64,000 nt of DNA from a bacterium (GCA_030603395.1 JAUVXX010000002.1:79807-143806), one strand, 5' to 3'; shown: positions 2,598 to 62,482, numbered from the stretch's first letter. The notes: generated by a model not told the origin, from the sequence alone. Program-made: numbers and translations.

Positions 2598-2599
2598 AT

Positions 2600-6667: not shown

Positions 6668-6670
6668 ATT

Positions 6671-13107: not shown

Positions 13108-13152
13108 GTTCTTTTCTCTTTCTTTTTAGCATGTTTTAATGGAAATTAAAAG

Positions 13153-13225
13153 AGCCAGAGATCGGATTCGAACCGATGGCCTGAGCTTTACGAAAGCCCT
13201 GCTCTACCAACTGAGCTACTCTGGC
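13153..13225 (-). tRNA. tRNA-Thr (anticodon CGU)
   Basis: The reverse complement is GCCAGAG-TA-GCTC-AGTTGGTA-GAGC-A-GGGCT-TTCGTAA-AGCTC-AGGCC-ATCGG-TTCGAAT-CCGAT-CTCTGGC-T. This is a complete cloverleaf with no encoded CCA. Confidence 0.9.
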
Positions 13226-44948: not shown

Positions 44949-44956
44949 TTTTAAAT

Positions 44957-46423
44957 TTATTCTCTTTTGAATCTATCTATTATATTATCTAAACTATTGG
45001 AGATATAATTAATTTCTTTTTCTGTTAAATTATTGTAAAAAGGCAAGGCAATGGTCAGGCCTGAGACTTTTTCTGTTAGCGGAAAACTTCCTTTTTTATA
45101 ACCAAACATCTTTACGTAAAATGGCTCTAAATGGATGGGTGGGAAGTAATCCCGGCAATTAATTCCCCTTGCCCTTAATTCTTTTATAATTTGGTCTCGG
45201 TCTTCCTTCAAAAATCGTTTATCATCAAGTCGTATAACATAAACAAACCAGCTCATTTTTACATTAGGAGCAATATAAGGAATTTTTATTCCCTCTATTT
45301 TACTTAACCTCTCATTGTAGAAATTAGCTACCCTCTGTCGTTTTTCAAGCATCTCATCAATCCTCTTCATTTGGACCACTCCTAAAGCCGCGCTCAATTC
45401 GCTCATTCGATAATTGTATCCCAATCTTGAATGAGATAGCCAGGCATCACCTTCATCTCTTCCCTGATTTCGCATACTCTGGCATAACTTTGCTATTTTT
45501 TCATCATTAGTAACAACCATTCCTCCTTCAGCGGTAACAATCTGTTTGTTTGGATAAAAGGCGAAGACGCCTAGACTGCCCAAAGAGCCGCACTTTTTTC
45601 CCTTGTGTTCTGAACCAAGAGCCTCAGCTGAATCTTCAATTAAATAAAGTTTGTATTTTTTAGCGATTCTTTCCAACTCGTCCCAATCAGCCGGATGACC
45701 AAAGATATCGACCACTAAGATAGCTTTGGTTTTTTTAGTAATTTTTTCTTCTATTTTATTAACATCAATACATAAAGTATTCTTATCTATATCAACGAAA
45801 ACCGGTTTTGCTCTTTCAAATAAAATACAGTTGGCTGAAGCAATAAAGCTAAAAGGGCTGGTAATTACCTCATCTCCATCTTTGATATCTAAACTCCTTA
45901 TACATAAATGAAGCCCGCTTGTTCCACTATTTACGGCTATGGCATATTTTGTTCCAGTATAATTAGCTATTTTTTCTTCAAATTCTTTAATTTTAGGTCC
46001 AATGCTCAGAAAAGGCGTAGATAGAACCTGATTTATCGCCTCTATCTCCTTATGGGTAATATCAGGGCTGGAAAGGGGAATAGTTCTTAATTCTGAAAGT
46101 AAAGCAATGTCTATCAAAATTCCTTCATTATCTATTATTGGAATTCCTCGAATGTCTTTCTTGAGCATTATTTCTAATAACTCTGTGGCTGGAGTACTTT
46201 TTGGAGCTGTAATCGGATTGATAGTCATTATTTTTTTAATTGGGGTATTAAAATCTTTACCAGACAATAAAGCCCGACGGATATCTCCATCGGTCGCTAC
46301 TCCAAGAAGTTTTTTATTTTCATTAACAATAAAAACTATTCTGATGCCAGATTTATTAATACGTTCCATCGTTTCCCGAATAGTACTGGATTCTATAACT
46401 ATGACTGAATCAATTTTATTCAT
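44957..46423 (-). CDS. CBS-pair domain fused to a DegT/PseC/LegC-type sugar aminotransferase
   Basis: Residues 1-115 form two CBS motifs (LLGVATDGDIRRAL...; GIPIIDNEGILIDIA). The remainder is DegT family (AVNSGTSGLHL, LIEDSAEALGSEHKGKKCGSLG, FAFYPNKQIVTAEGGMVVT). Confidence 0.8.
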   Translation of the reverse strand: MNKIDSVIVIESSTIRETMERINKSGIRIVFIVNENKKLLGVATDGDIRRALLSGKDFNTPIKKIMTINPITAPKSTPATELLEIMLKKDIRGIPIIDNEGILIDIALLSELRTIPLSSPDITHKEIEAINQVLSTPFLSIGPKIKEFEEKIANYTGTKYAIAVNSGTSGLHLCIRSLDIKDGDEVITSPFSFIASANCILFERAKPVFVDIDKNTLCIDVNKIEEKITKKTKAILVVDIFGHPADWDELERIAKKYKLYLIEDSAEALGSEHKGKKCGSLGSLGVFAFYPNKQIVTAEGGMVVTNDEKIAKLCQSMRNQGRDEGDAWLSHSRLGYNYRMSELSAALGVVQMKRIDEMLEKRQRVANFYNERLSKIEGIKIPYIAPNVKMSWFVYVIRLDDKRFLKEDRDQIIKELRARGINCRDYFPPIHLEPFYVKMFGYKKGSFPLTEKVSGLTIALPFYNNLTEKEINYISNSLDNIIDRFKRE

Positions 46424-46835
46424 ATTTTTTAATATCTTTTTTGCTTAATTTTCTGATTAATTTTACTGGTATTCCCAAAGCCAAGGTATTTTTAGGAATG
46501 TCTCTATTGACAAAACTAAAGGCCCCCACAATAGAATTTTCTCCAACAGTCACCCCCGGCATTACCAACGAATGAGAACCTATTTTACAATTCTTTTTTA
46601 GAACTACTTTTCCTTTTTTATCATCAATGGTGGAAACAGAATAAATGGAACAATGGGAGCCCAATTGTACATAATCTTCAATTATCACCCCTTCCTTAGC
46701 ATTAATATAGGTGAAAGCACCGATGTCGGTTTTGTAGCCCAATTTAAGGTTCTCCTTATTTTTAACCAGCCAGTTATATTTTGTCAACTTTCCCTCTTCA
46801 ATTTTTGGATACTTCCAATTTTTAAATCTCGTCAT
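46416..46835 (-). CDS. hexapeptide-repeat (left-handed beta-helix) acetyltransferase
   Basis: 139 aa. IGAFTYIN..., VQLGSHCSI, CKIGSHSLVMPGVTVGENSIVGAFSFV are LbH repeats, as in PglD/PseH/NeuD/WbbJ-type sugar N/O-acetyltransferases. Confidence 0.8.
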   Translation of the reverse strand: MTRFKNWKYPKIEEGKLTKYNWLVKNKENLKLGYKTDIGAFTYINAKEGVIIEDYVQLGSHCSIYSVSTIDDKKGKVVLKKNCKIGSHSLVMPGVTVGENSIVGAFSFVNRDIPKNTLALGIPVKLIRKLSKKDIKKYE

Positions 46836-46868
46836 ATTTTGTAATTTTTTATTTGTTTGATTTCAACC

Positions 46869-46897
46869 TTGACTTTTAATGTATTTTATTTTATAAT
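46869..46897 (+). promoter_or_regulatory. near-consensus sigma70-type promoter (-35 TTGACT, 17 nt, -10 TATAAT) for the DMT transporter gene
   Basis: TTGACTtttaatgtattttatttTATAAT. An AAAGGAAG Shine-Dalgarno-like sequence lies 6 nt before the ATG at 46950. Confidence 0.6.
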
Positions 46898-46949
46898 CTA
46901 AATTAGTTTCTTTAATAAAAACTTTAAAATGAAATGAAAGGAAGAAAAG

Positions 46950-47822
46950 ATGACTTGGCAAATCGCTTTAGGAGTATTGTTAGTTATCAATATTGGCAGT
47001 GTGATTCTTTCAAAACTTGCCAGCGACGCGCTACCAGAGAAGTCAAAGGGAATATTTTGGCTGTATCTGTTTAGCGCCTGCATAGTGGTTCTCTGGTTCG
47101 GTTTTTCCGGAAAGGAGTTTGGTGTCGGAGTAGCGGTTTTTCTGATGATAATTGCTATTGGATTCATAAACGGCTTTGGCAACTACTGTATGTGGAAAGC
47201 ATTTGGAGAAAGTTTAAGTAAAAGTGTATTATTCTTTCCCTTAATGGAGGTCTGTGCTATTGGACTAGCAGTGTTTTTCCTTGGGGAATTTCAGCTCTGG
47301 AATCAGCAATTGCTACTGGGGGCTATTTTATGCTTTGCCGCAATATGGATTTTCCGTTTTACCTGCAGTAGATCTGCAAAAAAGGGCAAGGCAAGCAAGA
47401 TATGGCTGTTTTCTATTCTGGGAATGGTCATTGTCGGAGGACTGACTACCTTTCTAGTGCAAGTTTGCTCTTTTACTATCCCAAAAGGAACATTTCTAAT
47501 GGGATGGTATATTGGCTCTTTCTTGAGTACGCCTGTCCTACTGAAACTTGAAAAGGCAAATCCTTTTCAAAAAATCTCCAAAAAAACTGTTTTGCTTTGT
47601 CTGGTAACGGCGGTGGCCATCGTTGGAGCTCTCGGAGCTCTGTACTGGACCTACCAGTTAGGAGGTCCAGCAAGTTCGGTCCTGCCCATCAAGGGATTAG
47701 CCATCACCATTATTCCAGTAATCATTGGCTGGTTAATCCTTAAAGAAAGGAGATTATCAAAAACAGAGTGGCTGGGATTTGTGGTCGGGCTTATCGGGGC
47801 GATACTGATTTTGCTTCGCTAA
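46950..47822 (+). CDS. EamA/DMT superfamily transporter (about 10 TM helices)
   Basis: 290 aa that is hydrophobic throughout, with an internal two-fold repeat of five helices. The C-terminal GFVVGLIGAILILL is typical of EamA domains. It is the second of the two plus-strand genes. Confidence 0.7.
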   Translation: MTWQIALGVLLVINIGSVILSKLASDALPEKSKGIFWLYLFSACIVVLWFGFSGKEFGVGVAVFLMIIAIGFINGFGNYCMWKAFGESLSKSVLFFPLMEVCAIGLAVFFLGEFQLWNQQLLLGAILCFAAIWIFRFTCSRSAKKGKASKIWLFSILGMVIVGGLTTFLVQVCSFTIPKGTFLMGWYIGSFLSTPVLLKLEKANPFQKISKKTVLLCLVTAVAIVGALGALYWTYQLGGPASSVLPIKGLAITIIPVIIGWLILKERRLSKTEWLGFVVGLIGAILILLR

Positions 47823-47857
47823 GTTAACAAGATAAGAACATCATAAACAGGAACGTC

Positions 47858-47893
47858 GGGGAGTAAAAGACAATTTTGCTCCCCTCTTCTTTT
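47858..47893 (+). terminator. rho-independent terminator after the DMT gene
   Basis: GGGGAGTAAAA-gacaa-TTTTGCTCCCC followed by TCTTCTTTT. Confidence 0.65.
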
Positions 47894-47905
47894 GCGCAGA
47901 ATTCT

Positions 47906-49057
47906 TTATTGATAACTGATTTGTTTTTGTAATAATTTTTTATCTATTTTTATTTCACTTAAGATGTTGGCGATCCTTGGACCTGTCTTACCGTCTCCGT
48001 AAGGATTTTTACATCTTTTTACCTTTTGTCCAAATTTTTTATCATAAAGCGCTTTCTTAATCGCTCTTTTTATCTGCTCTTTGCTAAAACCTACATCAAT
48101 TACATTGGCTACTCTCTCTCTTCCTTTCTGTCTTTGGCCAATATTTACCGTTGGCAAATTAAATGAGGGTGCTTCTATTATTCCCGAGCTTGAGTTACCC
48201 ACTAAGACGCTCACTATTCTCATCAAACTCAAGTAATCTTTATGAGGGACATTTTTATAAATTTGGATAAAGGGATATTTTCTATATCGTTCAATAACTT
48301 TTATCATTCTTCTACCACCCGCATCAGAATTCGGATAAATGATAATTGTCTGGCAGCCAAGTTCTTTTACTGCTTTCATTGTTTCTCTCATCTGTTTCCC
48401 GGCATCTTCAACCTCTGTTGTTACCGGATGTTGGAGTACCAATAAAATTGGTTTGTATAAATCCAATTTATATTTTTTTGCTGTATTTTTTTTAGAAAAT
48501 AATCTTTCACCTAAAATACTGTCTAAACCCGGGGCACCCACTACAAATACTCGCTGTTTATCCTCGCCCATTCTTATTATCCTTTCGGCTGATTTTTTTG
48601 TGGCTGGAAAGTGAATGTGAGACAGCTTGGTTATGGCGTGTCGAGCAAATTCATCAACGGTAGAGGTAATATCCCCGCCGTGGCTGTGAGCAACTGGAAT
48701 TGTCAAATATGCTCCCACTATTGCTCCTGATAACATCTCTGCTCTATCTCCTTCTATCAAAATAATGTCGGGTTTTATGCGTTTAATAACTCTGGTAAGC
48801 TTTAAGGTAAATTCTCCAATAAAATTAGACATTGATTCTTTGTTGTCTCTTTTATATATTGCCTTTATCTTATGAACTTTAAAATTATCTTTTTTTATCT
48901 CGCTTATGGTCTTACCAAATTCAGACATTAGGTGCATTCCAGTGACCACTATTTCTAACTTTAATTTCGGATGCCTGTTAATGCAGAATAAAGTCTTCCT
49001 CATTAAACCATATTCTGCTCTTGTGCCCGATATGTATAAAATTTTTCTTTTTTTCAT
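47906..49057 (-). CDS. neuC: UDP-N-acetylglucosamine 2-epimerase (hydrolysing), NeuC/LegG type
   Basis: 383 aa. It has ILYISGTRAEYGLM, GDRAEMLSGAIVGAYLTIPVAHSHGGD, HFPATKKSAERIIRMGE and GNSSSGIIEAPSF. Confidence 0.85.
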   Translation of the reverse strand: MKKRKILYISGTRAEYGLMRKTLFCINRHPKLKLEIVVTGMHLMSEFGKTISEIKKDNFKVHKIKAIYKRDNKESMSNFIGEFTLKLTRVIKRIKPDIILIEGDRAEMLSGAIVGAYLTIPVAHSHGGDITSTVDEFARHAITKLSHIHFPATKKSAERIIRMGEDKQRVFVVGAPGLDSILGERLFSKKNTAKKYKLDLYKPILLVLQHPVTTEVEDAGKQMRETMKAVKELGCQTIIIYPNSDAGGRRMIKVIERYRKYPFIQIYKNVPHKDYLSLMRIVSVLVGNSSSGIIEAPSFNLPTVNIGQRQKGRERVANVIDVGFSKEQIKRAIKKALYDKKFGQKVKRCKNPYGDGKTGPRIANILSEIKIDKKLLQKQISYQ

Positions 49058-49197
49058 ATCTTATCCCAAGTAATTAACTCGTCTTTTTTAATATCTTCCT
49101 TAGCAACTTTGCCAAAAACTTTTTCAAGGTATTTGGGCTTAAGTCCTGTCCCCGGTCTTTTAATGACCAACATCTTTTCTTTTATGGTGGCTCCTTT
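49054..49197 (-). pseudogene. C-terminal SAF-domain segment of the NeuB-family synthase, displaced into another frame
   Basis: The frame after the A5 run reads KGATIKEKMLVIKRPGTGLKPKYLEKVFGKVAKEDIKKDELITWDKI*. This is the canonical NeuB/PseI SAF-domain end, and it terminates in the ATGA overlap with neuC (stop 49054-49056, neuC ATG 49055-49057). Confidence 0.75.
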
Positions 49198-50150
49198 TTA
49201 ATATCTTCAGCTGCTACAATGCTTTTTCTGACTACTTTGGCTACCTCTACTTCGCTTGGCCTGGGTTCCTTAATCCCATCTCCTAAAGCTTCCCCGATAT
49301 CTAACTCTTTAATAATATTTTGGGGATTTTCTTTTTGAGTCAACCTTGTTTCAGTATTTCTTATTCCCTCAACCATTTCCTTTAATTCTTGGGGTTCAAG
49401 AGAGGCTTTGTGGTCGGGTCCTGGTAGGTTTCTGTCTAAGGTAAAATGCTTCTCAATGATGCAAGCACCGAGAGCGACAGTAGCCAAAGAAACATTTATA
49501 TCTTCTGTGTGGTCTGAATATCCAACGGGTAAATTAAATTCTTTTTCCAGTGTTTGAATTGCTTTCAGGTTGACCTCATTTAAAGGTGTCGGGTAGTTTG
49601 TGGTGCAGTGCAATAAAATTAATTCTTTATTGATTGGCAGAATTGTCTCAACTGCTTCCCTTATTTCTTCTAAGTAAGCCATGCCAGTTGATAAAATTAT
49701 TGGCAAGCTCTTTTCAGCGATATATTTCAATATGGGTAAATTAGTTAAATCTCCGCTGCCAACCTTAATAGCCGGAGATAATTCAGCAATAAGGTCAACA
49801 TCTTCTTGACAAGAGTGAGGAGTGGAAAGAAAAATTATATTTTTTTTATCACAATATTTTTTTAATTCTTTAAAATCTTTGTGCTTTAATTCCAGTTTTC
49901 TTAACATTTCTAACTGACTTTCTTTTTTACCAATATTCCTCTTCTGGTAATCAGCCATTCCTGTTTTTTCTGTAACTAAATTCTCTGCTCTAAACACTTG
50001 AAATTTTATAGCATCAACCCCCGCTTCTTTGGCGGCCGCAACTAATTTTTTAGCCAATTTAAGAGAACCGTTATGATTAACTCCAGCTTCAGCAATTATA
50101 AAACAGGGTTTATCTTCTCCTATTATTTTTTTGCCAATTTTAATTTTCAT
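49182..50150 (-). CDS. neuB: N-acetylneuraminate/legionaminate/pseudaminate synthase family protein (NeuB-like), truncated by a frameshift
   Basis: 322 aa. PCFIIAEAGVNHNGSLKLAKKLVAAAKEAGVDAIKFQ...GYSDHT... carries the TIM-barrel core. The ORF ends AAEDIKKEPP* just where the SAF domain should start. Confidence 0.85.
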   Translation of the reverse strand: MKIKIGKKIIGEDKPCFIIAEAGVNHNGSLKLAKKLVAAAKEAGVDAIKFQVFRAENLVTEKTGMADYQKRNIGKKESQLEMLRKLELKHKDFKELKKYCDKKNIIFLSTPHSCQEDVDLIAELSPAIKVGSGDLTNLPILKYIAEKSLPIILSTGMAYLEEIREAVETILPINKELILLHCTTNYPTPLNEVNLKAIQTLEKEFNLPVGYSDHTEDINVSLATVALGACIIEKHFTLDRNLPGPDHKASLEPQELKEMVEGIRNTETRLTQKENPQNIIKELDIGEALGDGIKEPRPSEVEVAKVVRKSIVAAEDIKKEPP

Positions 50151-50183
50151 TATTTTAAAAGAAAAGGTCTTTCTAAGAATAAT

Positions 50184-51335
50184 CTATTTTCTATTCTTAT
50201 TTTTATCCTCGTTCTCACATTGCTGTTTCCATATTGGATTTTTTACTCTCCATTTACCATTGACTTTTTCAAAAATATTTCTATTTCTCCATTTTTCGAT
50301 AACTTTCCAAAACTCTTTCTCGGTTAATCCTATATAATCTAGAAAAAATTTAAAATATTTTTTAGGAAATTCCCCATCATACTTTTTTACAAGCTTAATT
50401 GCTACCTCTCTGGTTAATCTTCCTTCTCTAATTAAATGGCCAGCATCTGATGTTGCTCGGCAAATCCCAAATTTCATCCACATTAAGTAATAGTGAAAAC
50501 CATCCAGTTTATCATCCAAGCTTGCATAATTAGTAAAGGTACCTTCGGATCGGTTTTTCCGGGCCCGAAAACCACATTTTTCTTTTGCCAGTTCGTAATT
50601 TTTATAGGGATCCCAAAGGTCAAAATGTGAAAAATGAATGAGCTTAATCCCCTTACTTTCAATCTCTTTTTCGCTTGGAAACATAAATGGTTTCAAGTCA
50701 TTTAAAGAAATTTCTTTGTCTATATACTTGTCAACATTCTGCTCGGAATATAAAAATTTTCTAACATATTCTCCATCAAAAACAGGTAAATTTTTTGTTT
50801 TGATTGAACCCCCATATTCAATTTCTGGATCTTCTCCATAAACTACTAATTTAATACCATAATTAATGGCTATTCTTACGGGTGCTGCCATCTGACCAAA
50901 GATAAATGGTAGAAAGGGATCTCCAAATTCTACAAACCCCTTTTTTGTAAGTTTTCTGTAAACTCGTCCATTAGGGATAACTGCAATTAGATCAAAACCC
51001 GAATTAACAAAGTTCTCTAAATTTTTTCGCCCGATATCTGTCGCCAGACCATTTCCTTGCCACGTTACACATAAAGGATGCATACGCAAATCGTGTTTCA
51101 TCCGCCAAGCCACATAAGAACCATCTTTCCCCCCACTGACAGGAATAATACAGTCATAGCTACCATCTTTAGCCCTATATCTATTACAAAATGCTTCTAA
51201 TTTTTTCCATTTTGCTTTCCAATTAATTTTATTAAACTTCTCTTCAGAATACCGACAGGCATTACATACTCCTTCTTCATCAAAAGTAATCCTGGGTCTT
51301 GTATTTGACATTACGCATTTTTTACAATATTTCAT
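50184..51335 (-). CDS. N-acetyl sugar amidotransferase (PP-loop ATPase; WbuX/PseA-like)
   Basis: MKYCKKCVMSNTRPRITFDEEGVCNACRY is a Zn-ribbon-like N-terminus, followed by the PP-loop CIIPVSGGKDGSY. This family makes acetamidino groups on amino sugars. Confidence 0.8.
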   Translation of the reverse strand: MKYCKKCVMSNTRPRITFDEEGVCNACRYSEEKFNKINWKAKWKKLEAFCNRYRAKDGSYDCIIPVSGGKDGSYVAWRMKHDLRMHPLCVTWQGNGLATDIGRKNLENFVNSGFDLIAVIPNGRVYRKLTKKGFVEFGDPFLPFIFGQMAAPVRIAINYGIKLVVYGEDPEIEYGGSIKTKNLPVFDGEYVRKFLYSEQNVDKYIDKEISLNDLKPFMFPSEKEIESKGIKLIHFSHFDLWDPYKNYELAKEKCGFRARKNRSEGTFTNYASLDDKLDGFHYYLMWMKFGICRATSDAGHLIREGRLTREVAIKLVKKYDGEFPKKYFKFFLDYIGLTEKEFWKVIEKWRNRNIFEKVNGKWRVKNPIWKQQCENEDKNKNRK

Positions 51336-51340
51336 AGTAA

Positions 51341-53086
51341 TTAAATTGATTTAATTTTAATTTTTGGGGGTTTCTTTTGCTGAACAGAAACATTCATCTT
51401 AACCAAATCTTTATTTTCATCCAATAATTGACAAATGTCATAGACATTAAAATATTCTTTCTTTTTTGACAGAATGCGAAATATCTTTGTTACTAATTTA
51501 AAATCTTCTTTGGTATCAACGGTAACCCGATATTGGGGTCGAAAAATATCTGGGTCCTCAACTTTAATAACATCACACTTAAATATACCGGGTTTCCTAA
51601 AATATGGTCCCCAGATTTCAGTATCTGAAGAATCTTTTAAATCACATACTTTCTCGAGAGCATTTTTAGAAACAGCATATGCCCCGCAACCAAGAGGTAA
51701 TCCTTTGATTTCACAAAAATCAAACTTCTCTCTAAGATATCTCTCAATCATTTTTTCTATAAAAATAGGTTCTACAAATGGATCGTCCGCAGTTATACTT
51801 ATAATCAAATCTACGTCAAATTTTCGAGCACAATCCCTCATCCGAAGCAAAACATCTTCTTCGCTACCTCGAAAATACTTTATGTCTTTTTTCTTGGTAA
51901 TTTTAATTAATGGGTTGTCCTGAGGATTAGTTGAAGTCATCATTACTACGGGAGTAATATGGCAATGCTTTAATCTGTCAATCATCCACCCAACTATTGG
52001 TTTGCCTAAAATCGGCTTTATGATTTTAAGGGGAAGCCGTTTTGATTTTAATCTGGCAGTTATAAATATGCCAACCTTGGGAAGCTCTCTCTTTTTGATT
52101 GGTTCAAATCTTTCATAAGACAGCCTTGACTTTTTATTAAGTAATGATTTTAACCGGCTGCCAGAAATTTCTCCTCTTTTTGCTCTCATTACTGCTAAAT
52201 TATCCTTACCAAAATTCTGGCCAGCCTTAATATCCTTTTTAGCTACAACTTTCATTAAGGACTTGTACTTTCTGTAGCGGAGTTCATCAGGAGAAACCTC
52301 ATTTACTTTCTTATCAAGGATTTTACCAGCCATTCTAATATTTTTTACAAAATCAGCAAATTCATCCGGATTTAAAGCAGCTTCATAATCGTGGCCTTTC
52401 AGGGCTCTGTTGTGAGTAATATGCTTCTCAGTAATAGAAGCTCCTTGCGAGATAGCCAAAACCGGTAAATAAGTAGAGGCAGAAGATATGGGCTCTGAAT
52501 GGTCCTGATAGCCCCAGGGAAGATTTAATTTTTGGGATAATTCCCGGATAAAATTAAGATTAATGCCTTGAGGCCTTGTGGGAAAATTTTGCAACCCATA
52601 CATTAGATGAATCTTGGCTTTTTTATTAACAGAGTAGATAAATTTTAGGATTTTTTCTATTCCTTCTTTTCCCATTCCCCCAACCGACAAATGAATTTCC
52701 TTTTTTGACTTGACTACCTCTCGGATTAGATCCTTGTTTTCTAAATTGGATGAATGAAATTTAAATCCTTTAATAGGTTTGTTTCTGCAAAATTTAGCGC
52801 TCTCTAAGTCATAAACATTAGCCCAAACATCTAAGTGGAGAGTATTAGCTTTCTTTATAAGTTTTGCCCATACTTTTTGATTTAAGTAGAAGCTTTTTAT
52901 ATTTTTATAGTCCTCGTCTTGAGGAATAATATAGGTCGCAAGGTCAATCAATTGAAATAAAATTCCATCGGCTCCGGCTAAAGAAGCAGATTTAATAATA
53001 AATTCAGCAATTTTGGCATCTCCCTCATGAGAAGAAGCCATTTCCGCCAAAATATATGTAAATGTTTTTTTATCTTTTATTTGCAT
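51341..53086 (-). CDS. fusion protein: NeuB/SpsE-like synthase (with SAF domain) plus cytidylyltransferase (SpsF / CMP-NulO synthetase-like)
   Basis: The N-terminal ~340 aa read FTYILAEMASSHEGDAKIAEFIIKSASLAGADGILFQ...GYQDHS...SAF (VVAKKDIKAGQNF...MRAKRG). The C-terminal ~235 aa read GIFITARLKSKRLPLKIIKPILGKPIV...YFRGSEEDVLLR...ITADDPF, which is the CTP_transf_3 family. Confidence 0.75.
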   Translation of the reverse strand: MQIKDKKTFTYILAEMASSHEGDAKIAEFIIKSASLAGADGILFQLIDLATYIIPQDEDYKNIKSFYLNQKVWAKLIKKANTLHLDVWANVYDLESAKFCRNKPIKGFKFHSSNLENKDLIREVVKSKKEIHLSVGGMGKEGIEKILKFIYSVNKKAKIHLMYGLQNFPTRPQGINLNFIRELSQKLNLPWGYQDHSEPISSASTYLPVLAISQGASITEKHITHNRALKGHDYEAALNPDEFADFVKNIRMAGKILDKKVNEVSPDELRYRKYKSLMKVVAKKDIKAGQNFGKDNLAVMRAKRGEISGSRLKSLLNKKSRLSYERFEPIKKRELPKVGIFITARLKSKRLPLKIIKPILGKPIVGWMIDRLKHCHITPVVMMTSTNPQDNPLIKITKKKDIKYFRGSEEDVLLRMRDCARKFDVDLIISITADDPFVEPIFIEKMIERYLREKFDFCEIKGLPLGCGAYAVSKNALEKVCDLKDSSDTEIWGPYFRKPGIFKCDVIKVEDPDIFRPQYRVTVDTKEDFKLVTKIFRILSKKKEYFNVYDICQLLDENKDLVKMNVSVQQKKPPKIKIKSI

Positions 53087-55229
53087 GAGAGATTACGCAA
53101 TCTTTTATCTCGGCAAAATCGTCGTAATATTTTGATGAAGGGTTATTCAGGGAACTTAAAAACTGAGCTTTTGGCTTTGGAAAAAATATTTTTGTTCTTA
53201 TGTATAATGACCTAAGTTTTCCATATAGGCTATCGGGTAAATTTAAAAAATTAAAAATATCTCGTATTCTATTTTTTAGAAAACATTTAAAATCATTGGG
53301 GTAGTTTTTCTTTAAATAGATAGCCATTGCATCATCAATCACCTTTTTTGATTTCTCTATGTCTAACTGAGATTTTTTACTTAAGTGAATTGCTAAGCAT
53401 TTTTTGAACTTAGCATATTTTTCATGATAACTACCTTCCTTGATAAATTCAGGAATATCTTCATTTCTGATACCTGCTGAATCAGGGATTATTTCCCGGG
53501 CAGTATAAAGCACATCTAAACATTTCATTTTACCGCATATCAATGCAAACATAGAGGGTAAAAGTTCAGCAAACCGTTCATCATCTGTGAATTTCAACAT
53601 TTCTTTAAAAATCATTTTCAAAAATTCAGTTTGGTGAACACCAAAAAGAGTTACCACTGAATAATCTGATAAATGTTTAAATAATCTCAATTTTGGGTCT
53701 TCAAAAGTAATTGATTCAGTTAAACATCCAGATGTTAAATAAAATTGTTTTTTTCCGCTCTTTTTAGTTTTTAAATAGAAAGATATGTGATTGCCGTAAA
53801 CAACCGTAAAATCAGGGTTATTTTCGAGAAAATCAACAGCTCGTTTAATGCCTTTCGGAGTAACAAAATCATCATCGGCACAAAATAAACAATATTTAGT
53901 TTTAGCATAATTTACGGCGTCAGCGGCCTGATGGCGAAACTTATCAAGCTTCTCTGAATAATGATTGAGGTATAAAATGTCTAAATCCAAGAAAGAAGAA
54001 ATAATTTCTTTATTTTTTGTTTTATTTTCATCCGAGCTGGAATCTGAAACAATGAGCTTAAAATCATTTTTATATTCCCTGTAATAATCAATGAGTCGTC
54101 TTAGGCAACCTGGACGGTTGTGGGTTATGATTATGATGGTAGCTTTTATCATTTTATTATTTTTTATTGCATGAGACATTATACAAGTTCGTATCTTATT
54201 AAAATCTTTGTAATATTCGGTCGGCAGGTCATTTGTTGAAGTTGAATTTGAATAATTATTATCTTTTTTGGGTAAAGAAAACAGCCGCCGATATAATAAA
54301 CTTATTTTTTTATATATCCAATCAGGCATATTTAACTTGTGTAAAATATTTGCCACTCCCATTATTAAAAAATGATAAGGGTTTATGTATACAGACATAG
54401 CTTTATCAACTATCCTTTTTGATTTCTCTATTCCTAATTGAGATTTTTTGCTTAGGTGGGTCGCCAAACATTCTCTAAACTTAATGTATTTCTCGTCATA
54501 AGTACCCTCCCTAATAAAATCGTCCATAGTTTTTGCCCTACTAGTTGCACAATCAGGAGTTACTTCCCTGACTCCATAAAGCACGTCTAAAGATTCCATT
54601 TTCCCATGTATTAAGGCAAGCATAGATGGTAAAAGTTCGCCAAATCTTCCATCATTTGTGAATTTTAATGTCTCTTTAAAAATCATTTTAAAAAAATCAG
54701 TTCGGAGAACGCCGAAAATGGTTACCGAATAATTTGATAAATATTCAACTAATCTCGATTTTGCTTCTGGAAAAGTAATTGATTTATGTAAATATATAGG
54801 AGCCCAATAAAATTGCTTCTTTCTACTCCTTTTAGTTTTTAAATAGAAAGAAACATAATCGCCGTGGGCGACTGTAAAGTCAGGGTTATTTTCGAGAAAA
54901 TCAACAGCTTGTTTAATACCTTTCGGAGCAATAAAATCATCATCGGCACAATATATGCAGTATTTGCTTTTGACATAATTTGAAGCATCAAGGAGCTGAT
55001 GATGGGCTTCATTACTTCCATGGGAGGAATCGCTATGGTAATTAACATATAAGATGTCTGAATCTAAGAAAGAAGAAATAGTTTCTTTATTTTTTGTTTT
55101 ATTTTCATCCGAGCTGGAATCTGAAACAATTATCTTAAAATCATTTTTATATTCCCTGTAATAATCAAGGAGTCGTCTTAGATGACCTGGACGGTTATGG
55201 GTTATGACTATAATGGTAGCTTTTATCAT
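53070..55229 (-). CDS. tandem-duplicated GT-A-like glycosyltransferase, two ~360-aa paralogous units fused in one ORF
   Basis: Unit 1 (55229-54153) and unit 2 (54152-53070) both start MIKATII(V/I)ITHNRPG.LRRL.DYYREYKNDFK.IVSDSSSDENKTKNKE. Unit 2 begins with its own ATG at 54150-54152. The first ~150 nt of the two units are more than 90% identical by hand alignment, and the rest is much more diverged. Confidence 0.65.
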   Translation of the reverse strand: MIKATIIVITHNRPGHLRRLLDYYREYKNDFKIIVSDSSSDENKTKNKETISSFLDSDILYVNYHSDSSHGSNEAHHQLLDASNYVKSKYCIYCADDDFIAPKGIKQAVDFLENNPDFTVAHGDYVSFYLKTKRSRKKQFYWAPIYLHKSITFPEAKSRLVEYLSNYSVTIFGVLRTDFFKMIFKETLKFTNDGRFGELLPSMLALIHGKMESLDVLYGVREVTPDCATSRAKTMDDFIREGTYDEKYIKFRECLATHLSKKSQLGIEKSKRIVDKAMSVYINPYHFLIMGVANILHKLNMPDWIYKKISLLYRRLFSLPKKDNNYSNSTSTNDLPTEYYKDFNKIRTCIMSHAIKNNKMIKATIIIITHNRPGCLRRLIDYYREYKNDFKLIVSDSSSDENKTKNKEIISSFLDLDILYLNHYSEKLDKFRHQAADAVNYAKTKYCLFCADDDFVTPKGIKRAVDFLENNPDFTVVYGNHISFYLKTKKSGKKQFYLTSGCLTESITFEDPKLRLFKHLSDYSVVTLFGVHQTEFLKMIFKEMLKFTDDERFAELLPSMFALICGKMKCLDVLYTAREIIPDSAGIRNEDIPEFIKEGSYHEKYAKFKKCLAIHLSKKSQLDIEKSKKVIDDAMAIYLKKNYPNDFKCFLKNRIRDIFNFLNLPDSLYGKLRSLYIRTKIFFPKPKAQFLSSLNNPSSKYYDDFAEIKDCVISHANKR

Positions 55230-55246
55230 TTATTTATTAAAAAGGA

Positions 55247-56245
55247 TTAAACATAGGGAAGGTGACACCTGGCACATAATGGTACTTTGTGCCACTCTCC
55301 TTTATTATGCAATTCTCTAATTCTTCGCATTTTTTCACCAAGCCAAACATCTTTAATACTAGTATCCTTTGCATTTCCGAAGCCACATTCAGCGTCGTAA
55401 TCTGTACAACATAAACCAATTTTCCCATCCCAATGCACGAACAACCGTTGATATAATTGAGGACAAACAAAATTTGACCGTTGATGACGTTTCACAGTAT
55501 ATCTTTTTTCTTTATCCATTCCCTGAGGATTTATATAATCAACAAATCCTATTAAATCAACAATGGACTTCCATAGTTTTATGTAGTCCAAAACCTCTTC
55601 TTTGTTTTCTTTCATCACTACCATACTAACTCTAACTATTGGGCTCGAGCTCCTTGATTCATTTCTTAACTGGACAAAATTCTTTACATTTTCAATAACC
55701 CTTTCAAAGCTCGCTCCTACCCTTATCTTTTCATATCTCTCTTTAAGGGAAGAGTCAAATGATATAAAGAGTTTATCTAATCCCGCATCAATTAATCCTT
55801 TAGACATACTCTTTGTCAATAGGACTCCGTTTGTATTAAACATAACATCTACTATTCCTTTATTTTTGGCATAAGCCACCATTTTTATCAGGTCTTTACA
55901 GATTAAAGGTTCTCCTAAATAACTCAATTTTATGGAGCACAATCCATTATCAGTTCCTTCGTCAACAACCTTTTTAAATAACTCAAAGTCCATATCTCCC
56001 TCCTCTATTTTTTCTCCCCTTTCTAATTTTATGGTCCGGGGACACATTGGGCAGCGTAAATTACATCTTCTGGTTGATTCTATGTCTAAGTGTAAAGGGA
56101 ACTCACCCACAATTTGTTTTTGAGGGTTCTCATGCCACTTTCTTCTGTATTCCCAATATTCTTCCAGTCGGGCAGCCTCCCATTTTTTATTATGGTCAGA
56201 AACCTTTACTTCTGTATAGGTAGGATTTACTTTTATATATTTCAT
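55247..56245 (-). CDS. radical SAM protein with Cys-rich C-terminal (SPASM/twitch-like) region
   Basis: ESTRRCNLRCPMCPR is the CX3CX2C motif, and SYLGEPL follows. The C-terminus reads FVCPQLYQRLFVHWDGKIGLCCTDYDAECGFGN...VPLCARC. Confidence 0.8.
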   Translation of the reverse strand: MKYIKVNPTYTEVKVSDHNKKWEAARLEEYWEYRRKWHENPQKQIVGEFPLHLDIESTRRCNLRCPMCPRTIKLERGEKIEEGDMDFELFKKVVDEGTDNGLCSIKLSYLGEPLICKDLIKMVAYAKNKGIVDVMFNTNGVLLTKSMSKGLIDAGLDKLFISFDSSLKERYEKIRVGASFERVIENVKNFVQLRNESRSSSPIVRVSMVVMKENKEEVLDYIKLWKSIVDLIGFVDYINPQGMDKEKRYTVKRHQRSNFVCPQLYQRLFVHWDGKIGLCCTDYDAECGFGNAKDTSIKDVWLGEKMRRIRELHNKGEWHKVPLCARCHLPYV

Positions 56246-57192
56246 AATGATTTCAATAAAGCAATAGTTTCATCGTAAGAAAGTTTTTTCAAAGGCGTGT
56301 AATGACTTTGCTCTGAGCAATTAATTATATCAACTGGCTTCAGATTGTATATTTTATAAATTTTTTCTAACATTAAAGGCATGGCGACATTAAAAAGCTT
56401 AGTGCCAATCATAAGCTTCTCTGCAGTCCGTTCTACAATAGAATCTGGATTACTTGGACCAGTTTCTCTAAAATAAAGTTCTTCGGTGTTTACTCTTCCG
56501 CCATCGCCGCCGAAAATAACCACTAAAGAAGCCCCTCCTATTACTGCCAAAGAGAGCAATATTGAAAAAGAATCTTGTCTTGGAAAATCTAAGGGGTATT
56601 CCATGCTCGGAATCCGCAGAGACAATCCAGCCTCCATCGTTATATAAGTAAAAGTAGAAGTAAAAAATAAGAGTTTTTTATCATATTTTTTAATAAATTT
56701 GTCTAAGTTAAATCCCTCTGGTATCTTTTTTTCCTGAAAAGATTGTTTTTCAGAAATAAATATATTGTCCCCCGGCCTTTCCAGAAAATCAATTATATTA
56801 TCCATATCTCCACCGGGATCACCACTCTTCATAACTACTGAAAGACGACGGCTAATTTTTTTTAAAATGTATTTCTCAACTGGCCAGCAAATATTTAGGC
56901 CGAAATAGCAGATATCGCAATTCTTAAGTTCAGTAATCCTTTGCTCAAGTTGTCTGATGGAGGCTCCGTGCAATAAAATTACCACTGGTCTTTTGTTTAT
57001 CAACCGGCGCAATCTCTTGATTCTTTCCTCAGTATCGGGTAGATAGTGAGTAAAATTCATCCTATCAGGTTCTTTGACAATTGGAGTTGTTGCATAAAAT
57101 CGACAAACCTCATCAAGCCCCCTTCTAACTCTCGAAATAAGCAATGCTTTCTCTAAGATTTTCTTAAAGATTCTTTTTAAAATTTTATTCAT
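56242..57192 (-). CDS. hypothetical protein
   Basis: A 316-aa ORF translationally coupled on both sides by 4-nt overlaps. PVVILLHGASIRQLE and VVIFGGDGG suggest a Rossmann-like fold, but I recognise no family. Confidence 0.4.
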   Translation of the reverse strand: MNKILKRIFKKILEKALLISRVRRGLDEVCRFYATTPIVKEPDRMNFTHYLPDTEERIKRLRRLINKRPVVILLHGASIRQLEQRITELKNCDICYFGLNICWPVEKYILKKISRRLSVVMKSGDPGGDMDNIIDFLERPGDNIFISEKQSFQEKKIPEGFNLDKFIKKYDKKLLFFTSTFTYITMEAGLSLRIPSMEYPLDFPRQDSFSILLSLAVIGGASLVVIFGGDGGRVNTEELYFRETGPSNPDSIVERTAEKLMIGTKLFNVAMPLMLEKIYKIYNLKPVDIINCSEQSHYTPLKKLSYDETIALLKSL

Positions 57193-57202
57193 TTTGATTT
57201 AA

Positions 57203-58495
57203 TTATTGTATTAGACATATTGCTTGTAATAAATTTTTAGCGATGAAATCTGGTTTCGCGTTAAACAGTTTATCTTTTCCTCCATAGCCAGTTTTTACTA
57301 AAATAGTTTTACAGCCAGCTCGCTTGCCAGCCAATATATCGCTGGTTTTATCACCAATTAAATAAGATTTTTTTAAATCAACGTTAAATTCTTTTTTTGC
57401 TTTCAATAGCAACCCTATCTCTGGTTTTCGGCAATCACATTTAATTTTCAGCTTCGGTATTTCGCCTCGGAATCCCCTCTCGGGATGGTGGGGACAATAA
57501 TAAATAGCATCTATTTTGGCGTCTTTTTTGCCTAACTCTGTTTCTAATTTTTTATGGATGTTTGAGAGAGTTTTTTCTGTCATAAAGCCCTTGGCAAGCA
57601 TTGGTTGGTTGGTAATTAGAATAGTGAGATAGTTAGAGTCATTGATTTTTTTTATGGCTTTTGGAGCAAAATTATATATTTTTAAATCTTCTACTTCAGA
57701 GGGCTGGTCCACTTCTTTGTCAATTACTCCGTCTCGGTCAAGGAAAATAGCTTTTCTTTTATTTTTTAAGTTGAGCCGCTTAATCTTTCCTGAAGCATAA
57801 TCCTGTTTAACTTTTTTCAGACGTTCGGGTGTGCCTATATCTTTTAAGTATTCGGGAGTATTATAAGCGTAGATTTTTTGTTTGGCTTTTAATATTAAAG
57901 GTAAAATATTTTTTTCAATGTCAGATTTTTTTTGGGAAGTAATATATTTAAATATTTTTGAAGAAAAAATAAATACCGAGGCAATGCTTAAATTGCGGAA
58001 AGTTGCTCCTGAACGATGCGGTCTTATTAATAAAGATGTGATTCTACCTGTCTTATCAACCTCAACCAGATCGCTGTCAAAAGGATGGTCGTTAGGATGA
58101 ACAACAATTGAGCCAATTTTTTCCTTTTTTTGCCGATGATAATTGATAAATCTCCCAATATCAAAATTCAGCATTACATCTCCTGATAAAACTAAAAAAT
58201 CTTCCTTTATTTTTTTCTCCAATGTTTTAATGGCACCAGCTGTGCCCAAAGGTTTTTCTTCTTGGTGATAAGAAATGTTAACCTGCCATTTTCTTCCATC
58301 TCCAAAATATTCTCTTATTTGATTGCCCAAGTATCCCAAAGGCAACCAAATATCTCTGATGCCGTATTTTCTCAAGAGCATAATTTGATGTTCAAGAATC
58401 GGTTTATCACCTATTTTTATCAGGGGCTTGGGAATCTTTTTGCCGAGAGAACCCAGTCGTTTTCCCTTACCCCCGGCTAAAATTACTGCTTTCAT
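57203..58495 (-). CDS. bifunctional sugar-1-phosphate nucleotidyltransferase (HddC-like) / D,D-heptose 1,7-bisphosphate phosphatase (GmhB-like HAD)
   Basis: The N-terminus MKAVILAGGKGKRLGSLGKKIPKPLIKIGDKPILEHQI is the NTP_transferase signature. The C-terminus AIFLDRDGVIDKE...ITNQ...YYCPHHPE...CDCRKP...IGDKTSDILAG carries the HAD-IIIA GmhB motifs, including the Zn-site Cys/His. Confidence 0.8.
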   Translation of the reverse strand: MKAVILAGGKGKRLGSLGKKIPKPLIKIGDKPILEHQIMLLRKYGIRDIWLPLGYLGNQIREYFGDGRKWQVNISYHQEEKPLGTAGAIKTLEKKIKEDFLVLSGDVMLNFDIGRFINYHRQKKEKIGSIVVHPNDHPFDSDLVEVDKTGRITSLLIRPHRSGATFRNLSIASVFIFSSKIFKYITSQKKSDIEKNILPLILKAKQKIYAYNTPEYLKDIGTPERLKKVKQDYASGKIKRLNLKNKRKAIFLDRDGVIDKEVDQPSEVEDLKIYNFAPKAIKKINDSNYLTILITNQPMLAKGFMTEKTLSNIHKKLETELGKKDAKIDAIYYCPHHPERGFRGEIPKLKIKCDCRKPEIGLLLKAKKEFNVDLKKSYLIGDKTSDILAGKRAGCKTILVKTGYGGKDKLFNAKPDFIAKNLLQAICLIQ

Positions 58496-58502
58496 AGATT
58501 TT

Positions 58503-59081
58503 TCACTTAGGACCGAATATTTCTTTTTCTACTATTTCACAAATAATGTGACCAATTAAAATATGGGATTCTTGAATCCTTGGAGTGTCAGTTGAAGGTA
58601 CTTTGATTAAATAACGACATAAATCCTTCATTTTCCCGCCACTTTCTCCGGTGAACCCCACGGTAATCAGCTTTAGATTGTTTGCTGTCTCAATTGCTTT
58701 TATTATATTTGCAGAATTTCCAGAAGTTGAAATGGCAACTAAAATATCTCCTGGCCTTCCGTTGGCTTTAATGAGTCTTGAAAACACTTCTTCATAGGAA
58801 AGATCATTAGCTACTGCTGTCATAAAAGACGTATTTATATTCAAGGGTTCGACATACAAGGGTTCTCTGTCCAAATAAAACTTTCCAGAAAGCTCCCCTG
58901 CTATATGCTGGGCGTCAGCCGCACTTCCTCCATTTCCACAAAAAAGCACTTTCTTATCGTTCCTGAGGGCATCTATCATCTTCTCAGCAACCCGCTCAAT
59001 TAGTTGCAGAGTCTCTCTATCACCCAAAATCTTCTTCTTTGCTTCTATGGTATTTTTTATGGCTTGGATAATTATTGACAT
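58503..59081 (-). CDS. gmhA: phosphoheptose isomerase (sedoheptulose-7-phosphate isomerase, SIS domain)
   Basis: 192 aa. It has LFCGNGGSAADAQHIAGEL, ISTSGNS and QESHILIGHIICE. Confidence 0.85.
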   Translation of the reverse strand: MSIIIQAIKNTIEAKKKILGDRETLQLIERVAEKMIDALRNDKKVLFCGNGGSAADAQHIAGELSGKFYLDREPLYVEPLNINTSFMTAVANDLSYEEVFSRLIKANGRPGDILVAISTSGNSANIIKAIETANNLKLITVGFTGESGGKMKDLCRYLIKVPSTDTPRIQESHILIGHIICEIVEKEIFGPK

Positions 59082-60019
59082 TTTTTTATTGTTTTAATAA
59101 TGCTCTCTTCATCCAAATTATTTAATTCCAGCAAATGATTTCTATCTCCTAAATCAAAAACGTGTTTATCGTTAAAACCTAAATTTTTTACTTTGACATT
59201 TGACTGGCGGTCGCGAACTATTTTTGATAGCAAGCTATCCAATCCCCCGTTATTTATAAGTGCTTCTTCAATGGTAATAATGTATTCATATTTTTTGAGA
59301 ATCTCAAATAATAATTTCTCTGCCATGGGCTTTAACATAAACACATCAACAACTCCAACGTTCCCAAGTTTTTTTGCTGCTGCTAAAGCCCGGTGGGTCA
59401 TAAAGCCGGTGGAAACCAAACAAACTTTTTCGCCTTTCAATAATTCATAAAATCCGTTCTCTATGTTTAAATCATTAACGCCATCATAAAGAGCAGGTAA
59501 AGGTTTGCCGTCAAACCGACAGTATTTTGGTATTTTGGTGTTAATTGAATAATCAACGAACTTTTCTGCCAATCTCCAGTCACTCGGCGAAAATACCATA
59601 AAATTAGGTAAAAGCCTCATAATGCTGATATCTTCTAAACAATGGTGGGTGGGGCCGGACATATCGTAACTTAATCCTGCTCCAACCCCTATAAGATTTA
59701 CATTTACCGGTTTTATTTGTGATGATATAGATAAATTTGACCTTATCTGTTCATAGGCTCTCATAGTCAAAAAAGACGTTATGGCATAAGCGTAAACAAC
59801 ATAGCCCTCCAAAGCCAAGCCGGTAGCTATGTTTATCAAATTTTGTTCGGCAATCCCGACGTTTATAAATCTATCTCCAAATTCTTTCTTTAGTTTATCC
59901 AAACTGGGCGCGCCAAAATCGTCAGCTAAGAAAAAGAGGCGATTATTTTTTTTCATTCTTTCACAAACTCTCTCTATAAAGGCATCTCTCATTGTTTTTA
60001 TTGGCTGGGAACTGGTCAT
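59072..60019 (-). CDS. transketolase C-terminal subunit (Pyr plus TKC domains)
   Basis: 315 aa. FINVGIAEQNLINIATGLALEGYVVYAYAITSFLTMRAYEQIR...GPTHHCLEDISIMRLLPN, followed by a full TKC domain. Confidence 0.85.
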   Translation of the reverse strand: MTSSQPIKTMRDAFIERVCERMKKNNRLFFLADDFGAPSLDKLKKEFGDRFINVGIAEQNLINIATGLALEGYVVYAYAITSFLTMRAYEQIRSNLSISSQIKPVNVNLIGVGAGLSYDMSGPTHHCLEDISIMRLLPNFMVFSPSDWRLAEKFVDYSINTKIPKYCRFDGKPLPALYDGVNDLNIENGFYELLKGEKVCLVSTGFMTHRALAAAKKLGNVGVVDVFMLKPMAEKLLFEILKKYEYIITIEEALINNGGLDSLLSKIVRDRQSNVKVKNLGFNDKHVFDLGDRNHLLELNNLDEESIIKTIKKCQ

Positions 60020-60840
60020 TTTAATTCTTTAATCGCTTTATTGATTTCATTTTCTTTTAATGACTTTATGTGACACAAAGCATCGCCCTCCAACTGGGAA
60101 ACTCCCTTTCCCTTAATGGTATCAGCTATTAAGACCCTGGGGCGATTATCATGGCTTCCTGTTAAAATCTTCAATGCATTGCGCAACTTTTCTATGTGGT
60201 GACCGTCAACCAGGGCAGTTTTCCATTTAAAAGCTCGGAACTTTTCTTCCAAGGGCTCTAAATCAATGATATTTTTACAGTAGTCAAGCATAGAAATTTT
60301 ATTATTATCAACAATTAATATCAAATTATCTAATTTGTGGTGGGAGGCAAACATAACAGCTTCCCAGACCGCTCCTTCATATAATTCCCCGTCACCTGAC
60401 AAAACAAATACTTTTGAATTCAAATTTTTCTTCTTCAAGGCCAGGGCTATGCCGCAAGCCACTCCCAGGCCATGCCCTAAAGCGCCGTTTATAGTTTCAA
60501 AACCCGGGATTCTGGTATCCGGGATATCACCCAAAAAAGAACCTTTTTGCGACATCTTTGTTAGCTCCTTTTTATCAAAAAAACCAAGGTCGGCTAATAT
60601 TGAGTATAAAGAAATTGCCCCGTGTCCTTTGCTGATTATAAACCTGTCTCTTTCCTGCCAATTAGGGTTCTTGGGATTAATGTTTAAAATTTTGCCGTAG
60701 TATAAAGCAACGAATATTTCAACGTCAGATAAAGATGAGGCCAACCGAAACCCTGGAGACATTTTATAAAGGTTTAATGTTTCTCTTCTAACCCACAACG
60801 CTTTCTCTTTTAAGAAGTTGATTAAGTCCGATTTTTTCAT
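60016..60840 (-). CDS. transketolase N-terminal subunit (ThDP-binding PP domain)
   Basis: 274 aa. It has SKGHGAISLYSILA, GALGHGLGVACGIAL and the canonical ThDP motif LSGDGELYEGAVWEAVMFASHHKLDNLILIVDNNK. Confidence 0.85.
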   Translation of the reverse strand: MKKSDLINFLKEKALWVRRETLNLYKMSPGFRLASSLSDVEIFVALYYGKILNINPKNPNWQERDRFIISKGHGAISLYSILADLGFFDKKELTKMSQKGSFLGDIPDTRIPGFETINGALGHGLGVACGIALALKKKNLNSKVFVLSGDGELYEGAVWEAVMFASHHKLDNLILIVDNNKISMLDYCKNIIDLEPLEEKFRAFKWKTALVDGHHIEKLRNALKILTGSHDNRPRVLIADTIKGKGVSQLEGDALCHIKSLKENEINKAIKELK

Positions 60841-60846
60841 ATTTAT

Positions 60847-62477: not shown

Positions 62478-62482
62478 AATCA

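Follow-up and report, generated by a model that had tools for sequence, protein, structure and literature searches.

Enzymes that have evolved with two glycosyltransferase domains in one chain have a conserved architecture with linker and interface regions. Among described systems, the locus reported here is best compared with the chondroitin polymerase of Escherichia coli K4 (PDB 2Z86), which has two GT-A/GT2 modules per polypeptide, and with the lipooligosaccharide (LOS) and capsule glycosyltransferase genes of Campylobacter jejuni (wlaN, 8G/9G), where the length of a homopolymer changes by a single base. The C. jejuni tracts are at least 8 nt long (8G or longer), switching is reversible and frequent, becomes faster as the tract lengthens, and turns the gene off (PMC7248181). 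The present locus lies on the minus strand (nt 53070–55229) of a 64,000 nt stretch of bacterial DNA (GCA_030603395.1, JAUVXX010000002.1:79807-143806), hereafter called the window. It is a 719 aa open reading frame (ORF) consisting of two complete ~360 aa glycosyltransferase units of the TIGR04440/GT2 type, two paralogues that may have been joined by the loss of a single A. As in the K4 polymerase, two GT-A/GT2 modules are present in one polypeptide, and the module is, in its N-terminal part, weakly similar in sequence to that enzyme (E = 8e-4), but the fusion described here is found on one contig, is without a linker and has kept the stop and start signals of two genes. As in C. jejuni, a single base of a homopolymer differs in surface-glycan genes, but the runs are A5–A6 or shorter and the glycosyltransferase ends up fused. 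The parts of the ORF are as follows.

nt 54153–55229 (read from 55229 to 54153), minus strand: unit 1, a complete TIGR04440/GT2 module of 359 codons as read
nt 53070–54152 (read from 54152 to 53070), minus strand: unit 2, a complete TIGR04440/GT2 module of 360 aa plus stop
nt 54933–54950, minus strand: CADDDF (DxD) motif of unit 1, intact
nt 53865–53882, minus strand: CADDDF (DxD) motif of unit 2, intact
nt 54153–54170, minus strand: junction, GCA ATA AAA AAT AAT AAA, followed by the ATG of unit 2
nt 53084–53086, minus strand: ATG of the NeuB-like/cytidylyltransferase gene (nt 51341–53086), lying inside the TCT CAT GCA of unit 2

The coordinates and the separate profile matches of the two halves agree with the original prediction, made from the sequence alone, that the ORF is composed of two units of ~360 aa. 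Both exceed the cut-off (70 bits) of the NCBIfam model TIGR04440, named 'TIGR00180 family glycosyltransferase' by NCBI, with scores of 165.5 bits for unit 1 (profile positions 2–215 of 215) and 154.7 bits for unit 2. The Pfam model PF00535 (GT2, GT-A fold; cut-off 23.3) matches them with 36.8 and 43.6 bits, and unit 1 also matches a hidden Markov model (HMM) of the family across profile positions 1–355. The two proteins are 59% identical over their whole length (216/364, E = 3e-150) and 56% identical beyond residue 60, close to the ~60% estimated earlier by eye for the sequence beyond the 5′ ends. Both carry the DxD metal/nucleotide-sugar binding motif at the family-invariant columns D96–D98, and in the family alignment D96, D97, D98 and F99, all within CADDDF, are invariant or nearly so. 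Modelling of unit 1 (AlphaFold2; predicted local distance difference test (pLDDT) = 86.9, predicted template modelling score (pTM) = 0.84) returned a GT-A domain and, C-terminal to it, a helical part, and the best Foldseek matches to this model were SpsA, TarP and TarS (probability 1.0). These inverting GT2 enzymes of the GT-A type are the closest solved folds to the N-terminal ~220 residues, DxD included, but share only 12–14% identity with the model, and the ~140-residue helical C-terminal part is without a solved counterpart among the matches. Each ~360 aa module, with its DxD site intact, is most likely a GT-A enzyme of the inverting type, and its gene is linked in the genome to those for the synthesis and activation of nonulosonic acid. 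Each is presumed to add one sugar to a surface glycan, from a putative nucleotide-sugar donor to a putative acceptor. A full-text literature search for TIGR04440 returned 0 papers, and a characterised member was not found.

The coding strand of unit 1 ends TCT CAT GCA ATA AAA AAT AAT AAA and runs directly into ATG ATA AAA GCT, the first codon of which (nt 54152–54150) is the ATG of unit 2. Unit 2 itself ends TCT CAT GCA AAT AAA AGA TAA, and relative to its GCA AAT AAA AGA TAA the junction is one A short. An extra A after GCAA gives SHANKK, the stops TAA TAA, one base, and then the ATG of unit 2, which would lie 4 nt past the first stop and 1 nt past the second. Unit 1 would then be 357 aa long, and its restored stop falls exactly at the position homologous to the stop of unit 2. 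In the assembled sequence these latent tandem stops (TAATAA, nt 54159–54154) are out of frame. The earlier proposal that one A restores SHANKK and two stop codons is upheld as far as the stops and their spacing from the ATG are concerned, but the site suggested for it, directly after GCA, is not unique. By reading the sequence, the missing A can be placed in the A2 at nt 54167–54168, the A6 at nt 54160–54165 or the AA at nt 54157–54158, and with one A added to any of these runs a stop returns after a few codons. The deletion, if real, alters only the last 3–4 residues of unit 1. Members of the family end 3–8 residues past a conserved ...VLSH-like motif (alignment of 28 members), which places the natural end of unit 1 exactly at the junction, without a linker; the bridge between the units amounts to five codons and nothing further.

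The 60 nt preceding the two ATGs are unrelated to each other (18/60 identical). A loose Shine–Dalgarno-like motif was found for just 7/46 genes of the window, the start codons being preceded by A/T-rich sequence, so that the start context of unit 2 is as good as that of other genes. The end of unit 2 overlaps the ATG of the following gene (nt 53086) by 17 nt, an overlap that had also been reported previously. The string TCTCATGCAA, which holds this downstream ATG, is also retained at the end of unit 1, and a similar overlap between the gene end and the ATG of a NeuB-like gene is present in one of the related loci considered below (L043). The last ~28 nt of the two units (nt 54170–54185 and 53070–53100, minus strand) are again unusually similar (about 24/28, including TCTCATGCAA), and this very short tract may be left over from the boundary of the original duplication or be the product of a second short exchange. 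Many genes of the window overlap or abut, and together with the sparse Shine–Dalgarno motifs this suggests translational coupling or initiation that is independent of such motifs.

With unit 2 as query, HMMER was run exhaustively against 1.84 billion representative proteins and gave 193 matches at E < 1e-30. Among the 150 best of these, the protein described here (P0001) is the only one with two units, and it alone has two full-length domain matches to a family HMM over 182 collected members, 130 of which are 330–400 aa long. Members with other fused domains do occur (N-terminal 2H-phosphoesterase-like, membrane, and C-terminal epimerase-like), but none has a second copy of the module. Look-ups of the exact sequence of P0001 gave no contig; it forms a singleton cluster, and the exact fused protein is found on one NCBI contig of 167 kb. 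The GTDB representative genomes yielded nothing when scanned with unit 1 alone and only distant relatives (≤51% identity) when scanned with the family alignment, while a scan of JGI metagenomes with the fused protein found no close relative, the one match being 36% identical. The closest homologues of the module (P0002–P0012, e.g. nt 199–1896 of L044) carry an N-terminal ~215 aa 2H-phosphoesterase/2′-5′ RNA-ligase-like domain (PF13563, faint), and others have ~720 aa of membrane region at the N-terminus, or a region resembling UDP-GlcNAc 2-epimerase at the C-terminus. The glycosyltransferase family is widespread in archaeal metagenome-assembled genomes (MAGs), including those of Bathyarchaeia, Woesearchaeota, Altiarchaeota and Heimdall- and Lokiarchaeia, as well as in genomes of Chloroflexi and the candidate phyla radiation (CPR).

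Three syntenic loci (L043, nt 8001–9089; L046, nt 8893–9993; L047, nt 2980–4080) have a single glycosyltransferase gene (362–366 aa) directly upstream of the NeuB-like/cytidylyltransferase gene or genes. These TIGR04440 genes resemble the units of the window in family, in their length of ~360 aa and in the motif at their C-terminal end; they also overlap or abut the start of a NeuB-like gene and are surrounded by heptose, NeuC, aminotransferase and hexapeptide-transferase genes. They differ in being present as one copy rather than as two in one ORF, and in their sequences (46–57% identity). Unit 2 is the positional orthologue of the single gene, and is 56.7% identical to the glycosyltransferase of L046 compared with 51.9% for unit 1; a second syntenic comparison gave 50.8% and 45.8%, respectively. 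Unit 1 is an extra copy, because nothing in the syntenic loci corresponds to it in position. In three other genomes, tandem pairs are present as separate genes: a Chloroflexi MAG (L008, nt 6001–7059 and 7081–8166, 352 and 361 aa, 21 nt gap), a second Chloroflexi MAG (L013, nt 7113–8201 preceded by nt 6001–7083, 362 and 360 aa) and L045 (nt 1005–2093 and 2080–3198, 362 and 372 aa, 14 nt overlap). Like the units of the window, these pairs are two family members arranged head to tail with tiny gaps or overlaps, but a stop codon stands between the genes, their origin is independent, and they are much more diverged. The comparison of copy number with related genomes that had been suggested thus gave one copy at the syntenic loci, separate tandem pairs in three genomes and a fused copy in none. 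Among the sequences collected, the two-gene state is the norm for the family, and since the fusion is unique while copies elsewhere are single or separate, the join must be either a very recent mutation or an artefact. Either way, the enzyme is not of a new kind: its family is known, and the single ORF is due to an ordinary event, a recent mutation or a slip in the base count.

Divergence between the two units is concentrated outside their 5′ ends, where the following tract was recognised.

nt 55050–55229, minus strand: 5′ homogenised tract, unit 1 copy (codons 1–60), distinguished by identity, silent divergence and comparison with outgroups
nt 53973–54152, minus strand: 5′ homogenised tract, unit 2 copy (codons 1–60), the similarity stopping at the ATG

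In a codon-based alignment, nucleotide identity in successive 60 nt windows is 0.90, 0.95 and 0.93, drops to 0.47, and later varies between 0.43 and 0.90; the 180 nt of the tract contain 13 differences. The Nei–Gojobori estimate of synonymous divergence (dS) is 0.18 for codons 1–60 and 0.85 for the remainder, making it ~4–5 times lower in the tract. Where both units encode the same amino acid, silent differences are found in 4/53 of the first 60 codons and in 48/158 of the later ones (Fisher p = 7e-4), and a maximum chi-square scan of these silent codons placed a breakpoint near codon 55–60, with the observed value reached in 26/5000 permutations. Outgroups give a discordant picture on the two sides of this point. 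Residues 1–60 of the units are 90% identical to each other but 50–68% identical to outgroups (binomial 6e-5), whereas over residues 61–359 the units are 56% identical to each other, 57–58% to P0003 and 51–55% to the L046 glycosyltransferase. In the last third they share 47% identity, against 50–53% with some outgroups, and beyond residue 60 the nearest neighbour was an outgroup in 60% (unit 1) and 76% (unit 2) of bootstrap replicates. Both features expected of gene conversion are present, namely a contiguous tract poor in silent changes and a tract and remainder that are discordant relative to outgroups, which indicates that the units are old paralogues (or that one was acquired separately) whose first ~180 nt were exchanged later.

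Without any exchange, stronger purifying selection on the N-terminal nucleotide-binding part, acting on protein or mRNA after a single duplication, could be put forward for the similar 5′ ends, given that residues 1–60 are the most conserved region of the family and that divergence rises gradually toward the 3′ end. A second 90%-identical patch (alignment nt 271–360) would be explained in the same way, as it coincides with the invariant CADDDF...VDFLE motif and shows no significant deficit of silent changes (p = 0.25); this patch, which overlaps the invariant catalytic motif, was itself rejected as a conversion tract. Selection of this kind is, however, highly unlikely to account for the 5′ tract, where the deficit is at silent sites, where outgroups are far less similar than the units are to each other although beyond residue 60 they are as close as the paralogue, and where similarity ends abruptly near codon 60. 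By these comparisons the homogenisation is real, and stronger than first estimated. Gene conversion or recombination at the 5′ ends, as put forward in the original prediction, is borne out by dS, by silent codons and by the outgroup discordance; the hand counts given there (7 mismatches in ~90 nt, then 2 in ~50) agree with the alignment, and the per-window profile is not uniform. With 13 differences in the tract, the exchange must be much older than the fusion of the frames, and the two events are unrelated.

A second gene of the region is also one A short, at a distance of 4 kb from the glycosyltransferase locus.

nt 49195–49199, minus strand: neuB lesion, an A5 run that is one A short; repair restores a NeuB of 365 aa

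As read, neuB (nt 49182–50150) ends at profile position 262 of 329. With the lesion repaired it extends over nt 49063–50150 (minus strand), and the restored 365 aa protein regains the C-terminal SAF-type region and is collinear with the intact 368 aa NeuB of L043 (60% identity), also across the lesion. neuB is confirmed as the second single-A anomaly of the region, as had been proposed. The NeuB held in the public protein collection is the truncated 322 aa product.

In our assessment, it is about as likely as not that the A missing from the junction reflects a real and recent deletion in a dispensable glycan island, which is slightly preferred to a miscount. The history of old paralogues and a converted 5′ tract would be the same if the organism still had the A, its absence being due to under-calling of a homopolymer or to a faulty local consensus in an island of mixed strains and low coverage; two separate ~42 kDa enzymes would then be made, unit 2 being translated by coupling 1–4 nt past the stop of unit 1. 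Such a miscount is a tentative but serious possibility, and several observations speak for it. Each lesion is a −1 change in an A run, as is classic for under-called homopolymers. The two-gene signals are undisturbed, with no drift in the stops, the ATG or the linker since the event, exactly as an artefact predicts, and one A is enough to recreate the stop homologous to that of unit 2, a second stop and the adjacent ATG. The fused form is unique among the 182 family members, the fused protein and the truncated NeuB are each found on one NCBI contig only, and the sequence comes from a single-contig assembly of metagenome type, of which no second copy was found. It is suspicious that neuB, a key enzyme of the pathway, should be broken within an otherwise intact operon-like island of ~20 genes in a streamlined genome. 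Glycan islands that are strain-mixed in metagenome bins are prone to local consensus errors, which would place both lesions there. The repaired products (unit 2 alone, unit 1 ending in NKK, IKK or IKNK, and the repaired NeuB) are absent from a collection of 15 billion proteins, so that there is no independent assembly with separate genes.

A general base-calling error is less easily reconciled with the distribution of the lesions. The window contains 814 A/T runs of at least 5 nt, 258 (32%) of them inside the glycan island and 556 outside; lesions occur in 2/258 and 0/556 of these, and the chance of both falling in the island under uniform error is 0.10. About 58 other ORFs of the window are either covered by profiles over their full length or explained in another way, and when further frameshifts were looked for as a gauge of assembly quality, all long gaps proved to be due to the RNase P RNA (nt 15571–15911) and non-coding spacers. 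The affected runs are also short (A5–A6, or A2), a length at which modern consensus error is low. The clustering of the lesions fits frameshifts that persist only where they are tolerated, as in a dispensable surface-glycan island, but would also fit a local consensus problem in an island that varies between strains.

A functional design for the single ORF, be it an evolved two-domain glycosyltransferase, a phase-variable A-run switch or a programmed −1 frameshift site, is very improbable. In its favour, both modules are intact, the module is known to occur fused to 2H-phosphoesterase, membrane and epimerase-like domains, and the adjoining NeuB–cytidylyltransferase fusion is conserved. An evolved bifunctional enzyme was nevertheless rejected, as the tandem architecture is found in 1/182 family members, this protein itself, there is no linker, and the internal signals are retained, the stops lying one A away and the ATG being intact. 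Programmed frameshifting could draw on a slippery heptamer (X XXY YYZ) at the junction, where A AAA AAU is in phase (nt 54166–54160), and on AAA AAG, in phase (by reading) at the neuB lesion; slippage on A_AAA_AAT would lead straight to UAA, and unit 1 alone would be made beside the fusion. Such a heptamer is trivial in the A run of a Lys/Asn-rich tail, however, and the loss of any A from an A run leaves a slippery-looking run. No frameshift-stimulating RNA structure was found downstream of the junction, the predicted folding (minimum free energy −9 kcal/mol) being no stronger than in shuffled sequences (z = −0.13), and this mechanism was rejected on account of the unstructured RNA and an arrangement shared by no homologue. 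Phase variation was rejected as well. Contingency loci typically have tracts of 7–8 nt or more, known ones being at least 8 nt long, and their switching rate grows with length (PMC7248181); the runs here are A6/A2 at the junction and A5 in neuB, and the effect on the glycosyltransferase is a fusion, so that the on/off-type variation raised in the original prediction did not hold up. A literature search for a documented in-frame cgtA–neuA fusion as precedent found no text on it.

The best explanation, in which we place an intermediate degree of confidence as a whole, begins with two adjacent single-module (~360 aa) GT-A/GT2 genes of the TIGR04440 family in a nonulosonic-acid and heptose island of a Nealsonbacteria-like Patescibacteria genome. 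The copies would be old paralogues, outside their first 60 codons as diverged from each other as from homologues of other lineages. Gene conversion or recombination would have overwritten the first ~180 nt of one copy, with 13 differences arising since. Much later, and very recently, one A may have dropped out of the A-rich final codons of the upstream copy, which would have put TAA TAA out of frame and the downstream ATG in frame, giving an ORF of 719 codons. The deletion would be a genuine, very recent slippage in the sequenced population, matching the single-A loss in neuB, and both lesions would fall within a surface-glycan island that is dispensable and evolves fast, where changes of this kind are tolerated, or even favoured. 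The predicted product is a head-to-tail enzyme of two modules, roughly 83 kDa (a length-based estimate), with both DxD sites intact. Unit 2 may still be made alone by internal initiation, since its start keeps the A/T-rich context. The truncation of neuB may have shut down that branch of the pathway, in which case the fusion would be selectively neutral, and we infer that it is a neutral accident and not an evolved bifunctional enzyme. It is improbable that both A losses are real and selected, with the nonulosonic-acid surface glycan remodelled or switched off by slippage in short homopolymers. Phage escape or a change of host attachment would then be the gain, with neuB knocked out and the transferases welded into an incipient two-domain enzyme, while some of the original products would still come from leaky −1 slippage on A_AAA_AAT and AAA_AAG.

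A real deletion would make the locus a case of gene fusion by stop-codon loss caught as it happens, and an example of how two-domain glycosyltransferases could evolve where paralogues lie in tandem in densely packed operons. An artefact would mean that two miscounted bases of a public assembly have placed a spurious 719 aa 'bifunctional' protein and a truncated NeuB in the databases. The partial gene conversion is as clear as a textbook example, of a phenomenon that is already known. Surface glycans of Patescibacteria are essentially unstudied, and the TIGR04440 module, a conserved partner of NeuB–cytidylyltransferase genes, is a candidate nonulosonic-acid-related transferase.

The bacterial nature of the host is shown by SecA, SecD, FtsZ, MurJ and a class A RNase P RNA. 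The nearest named SecA homologues are those of Candidatus Nealsonbacteria and Patescibacteria (68–75%), the nearest overall being 87% identical. The minus-strand glycan island (~43.6–64 kb), with nonulosonic-acid and heptose genes, has in operon order first a heptose kinase, an RmlC-like protein, an aminotransferase, a split transketolase, GmhA and HddC-GmhB. These are followed by an unknown protein, a radical SAM/SPASM protein, the glycosyltransferase pair, the NeuB-like/cytidylyltransferase, WbuX, NeuB and NeuC, and finally by a plus-strand membrane protein, a hexapeptide acetyltransferase and a CBS-aminotransferase. The TIGR04440 glycosyltransferase, NeuB-like/cytidylyltransferase, NeuB and NeuC recur together in L043, L045, L046, L047 and the window (nt 43620–63469), and the same loci share a hexapeptide transferase, a DegT aminotransferase, heptose genes and a 290 aa membrane protein encoded on the opposite strand (nt 46950–47822 of the window, plus strand). 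The gene downstream of the glycosyltransferase ORF (nt 51341–53086, minus strand) encodes a 581 aa protein in which a NeuB-like domain, without a SAF domain, is fused to a cytidylyltransferase. It was considered as a third fusion made by an indel and rejected, the architecture being conserved in more than 50 clusters (57–81% identity, 561–614 aa). In L043 the two parts are separate, overlapping genes (349 and 255 aa).

Elsewhere in the window, the release-factor gene (nt 12172–13107, minus strand) encodes only 311 aa, and its PCRF match begins at profile position 40. A tRNA-Thr (nt 13152–13225) sits 44 nt upstream of it, so that neither the usual N-terminal part nor a frameshift leader of the RF2 type can be accommodated. 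The class A bacterial RNase P RNA (nt 15571–15911, minus strand; 153.8 bits) fills the largest apparently non-coding gap. Two pairs of split-transketolase-like genes are present, one of which (nt 37608–38868, minus strand) is short (252 and 161 aa) and without a Transketolase_C domain, while the other (nt 59072–60840, minus strand) is full length (274 and 315 aa).

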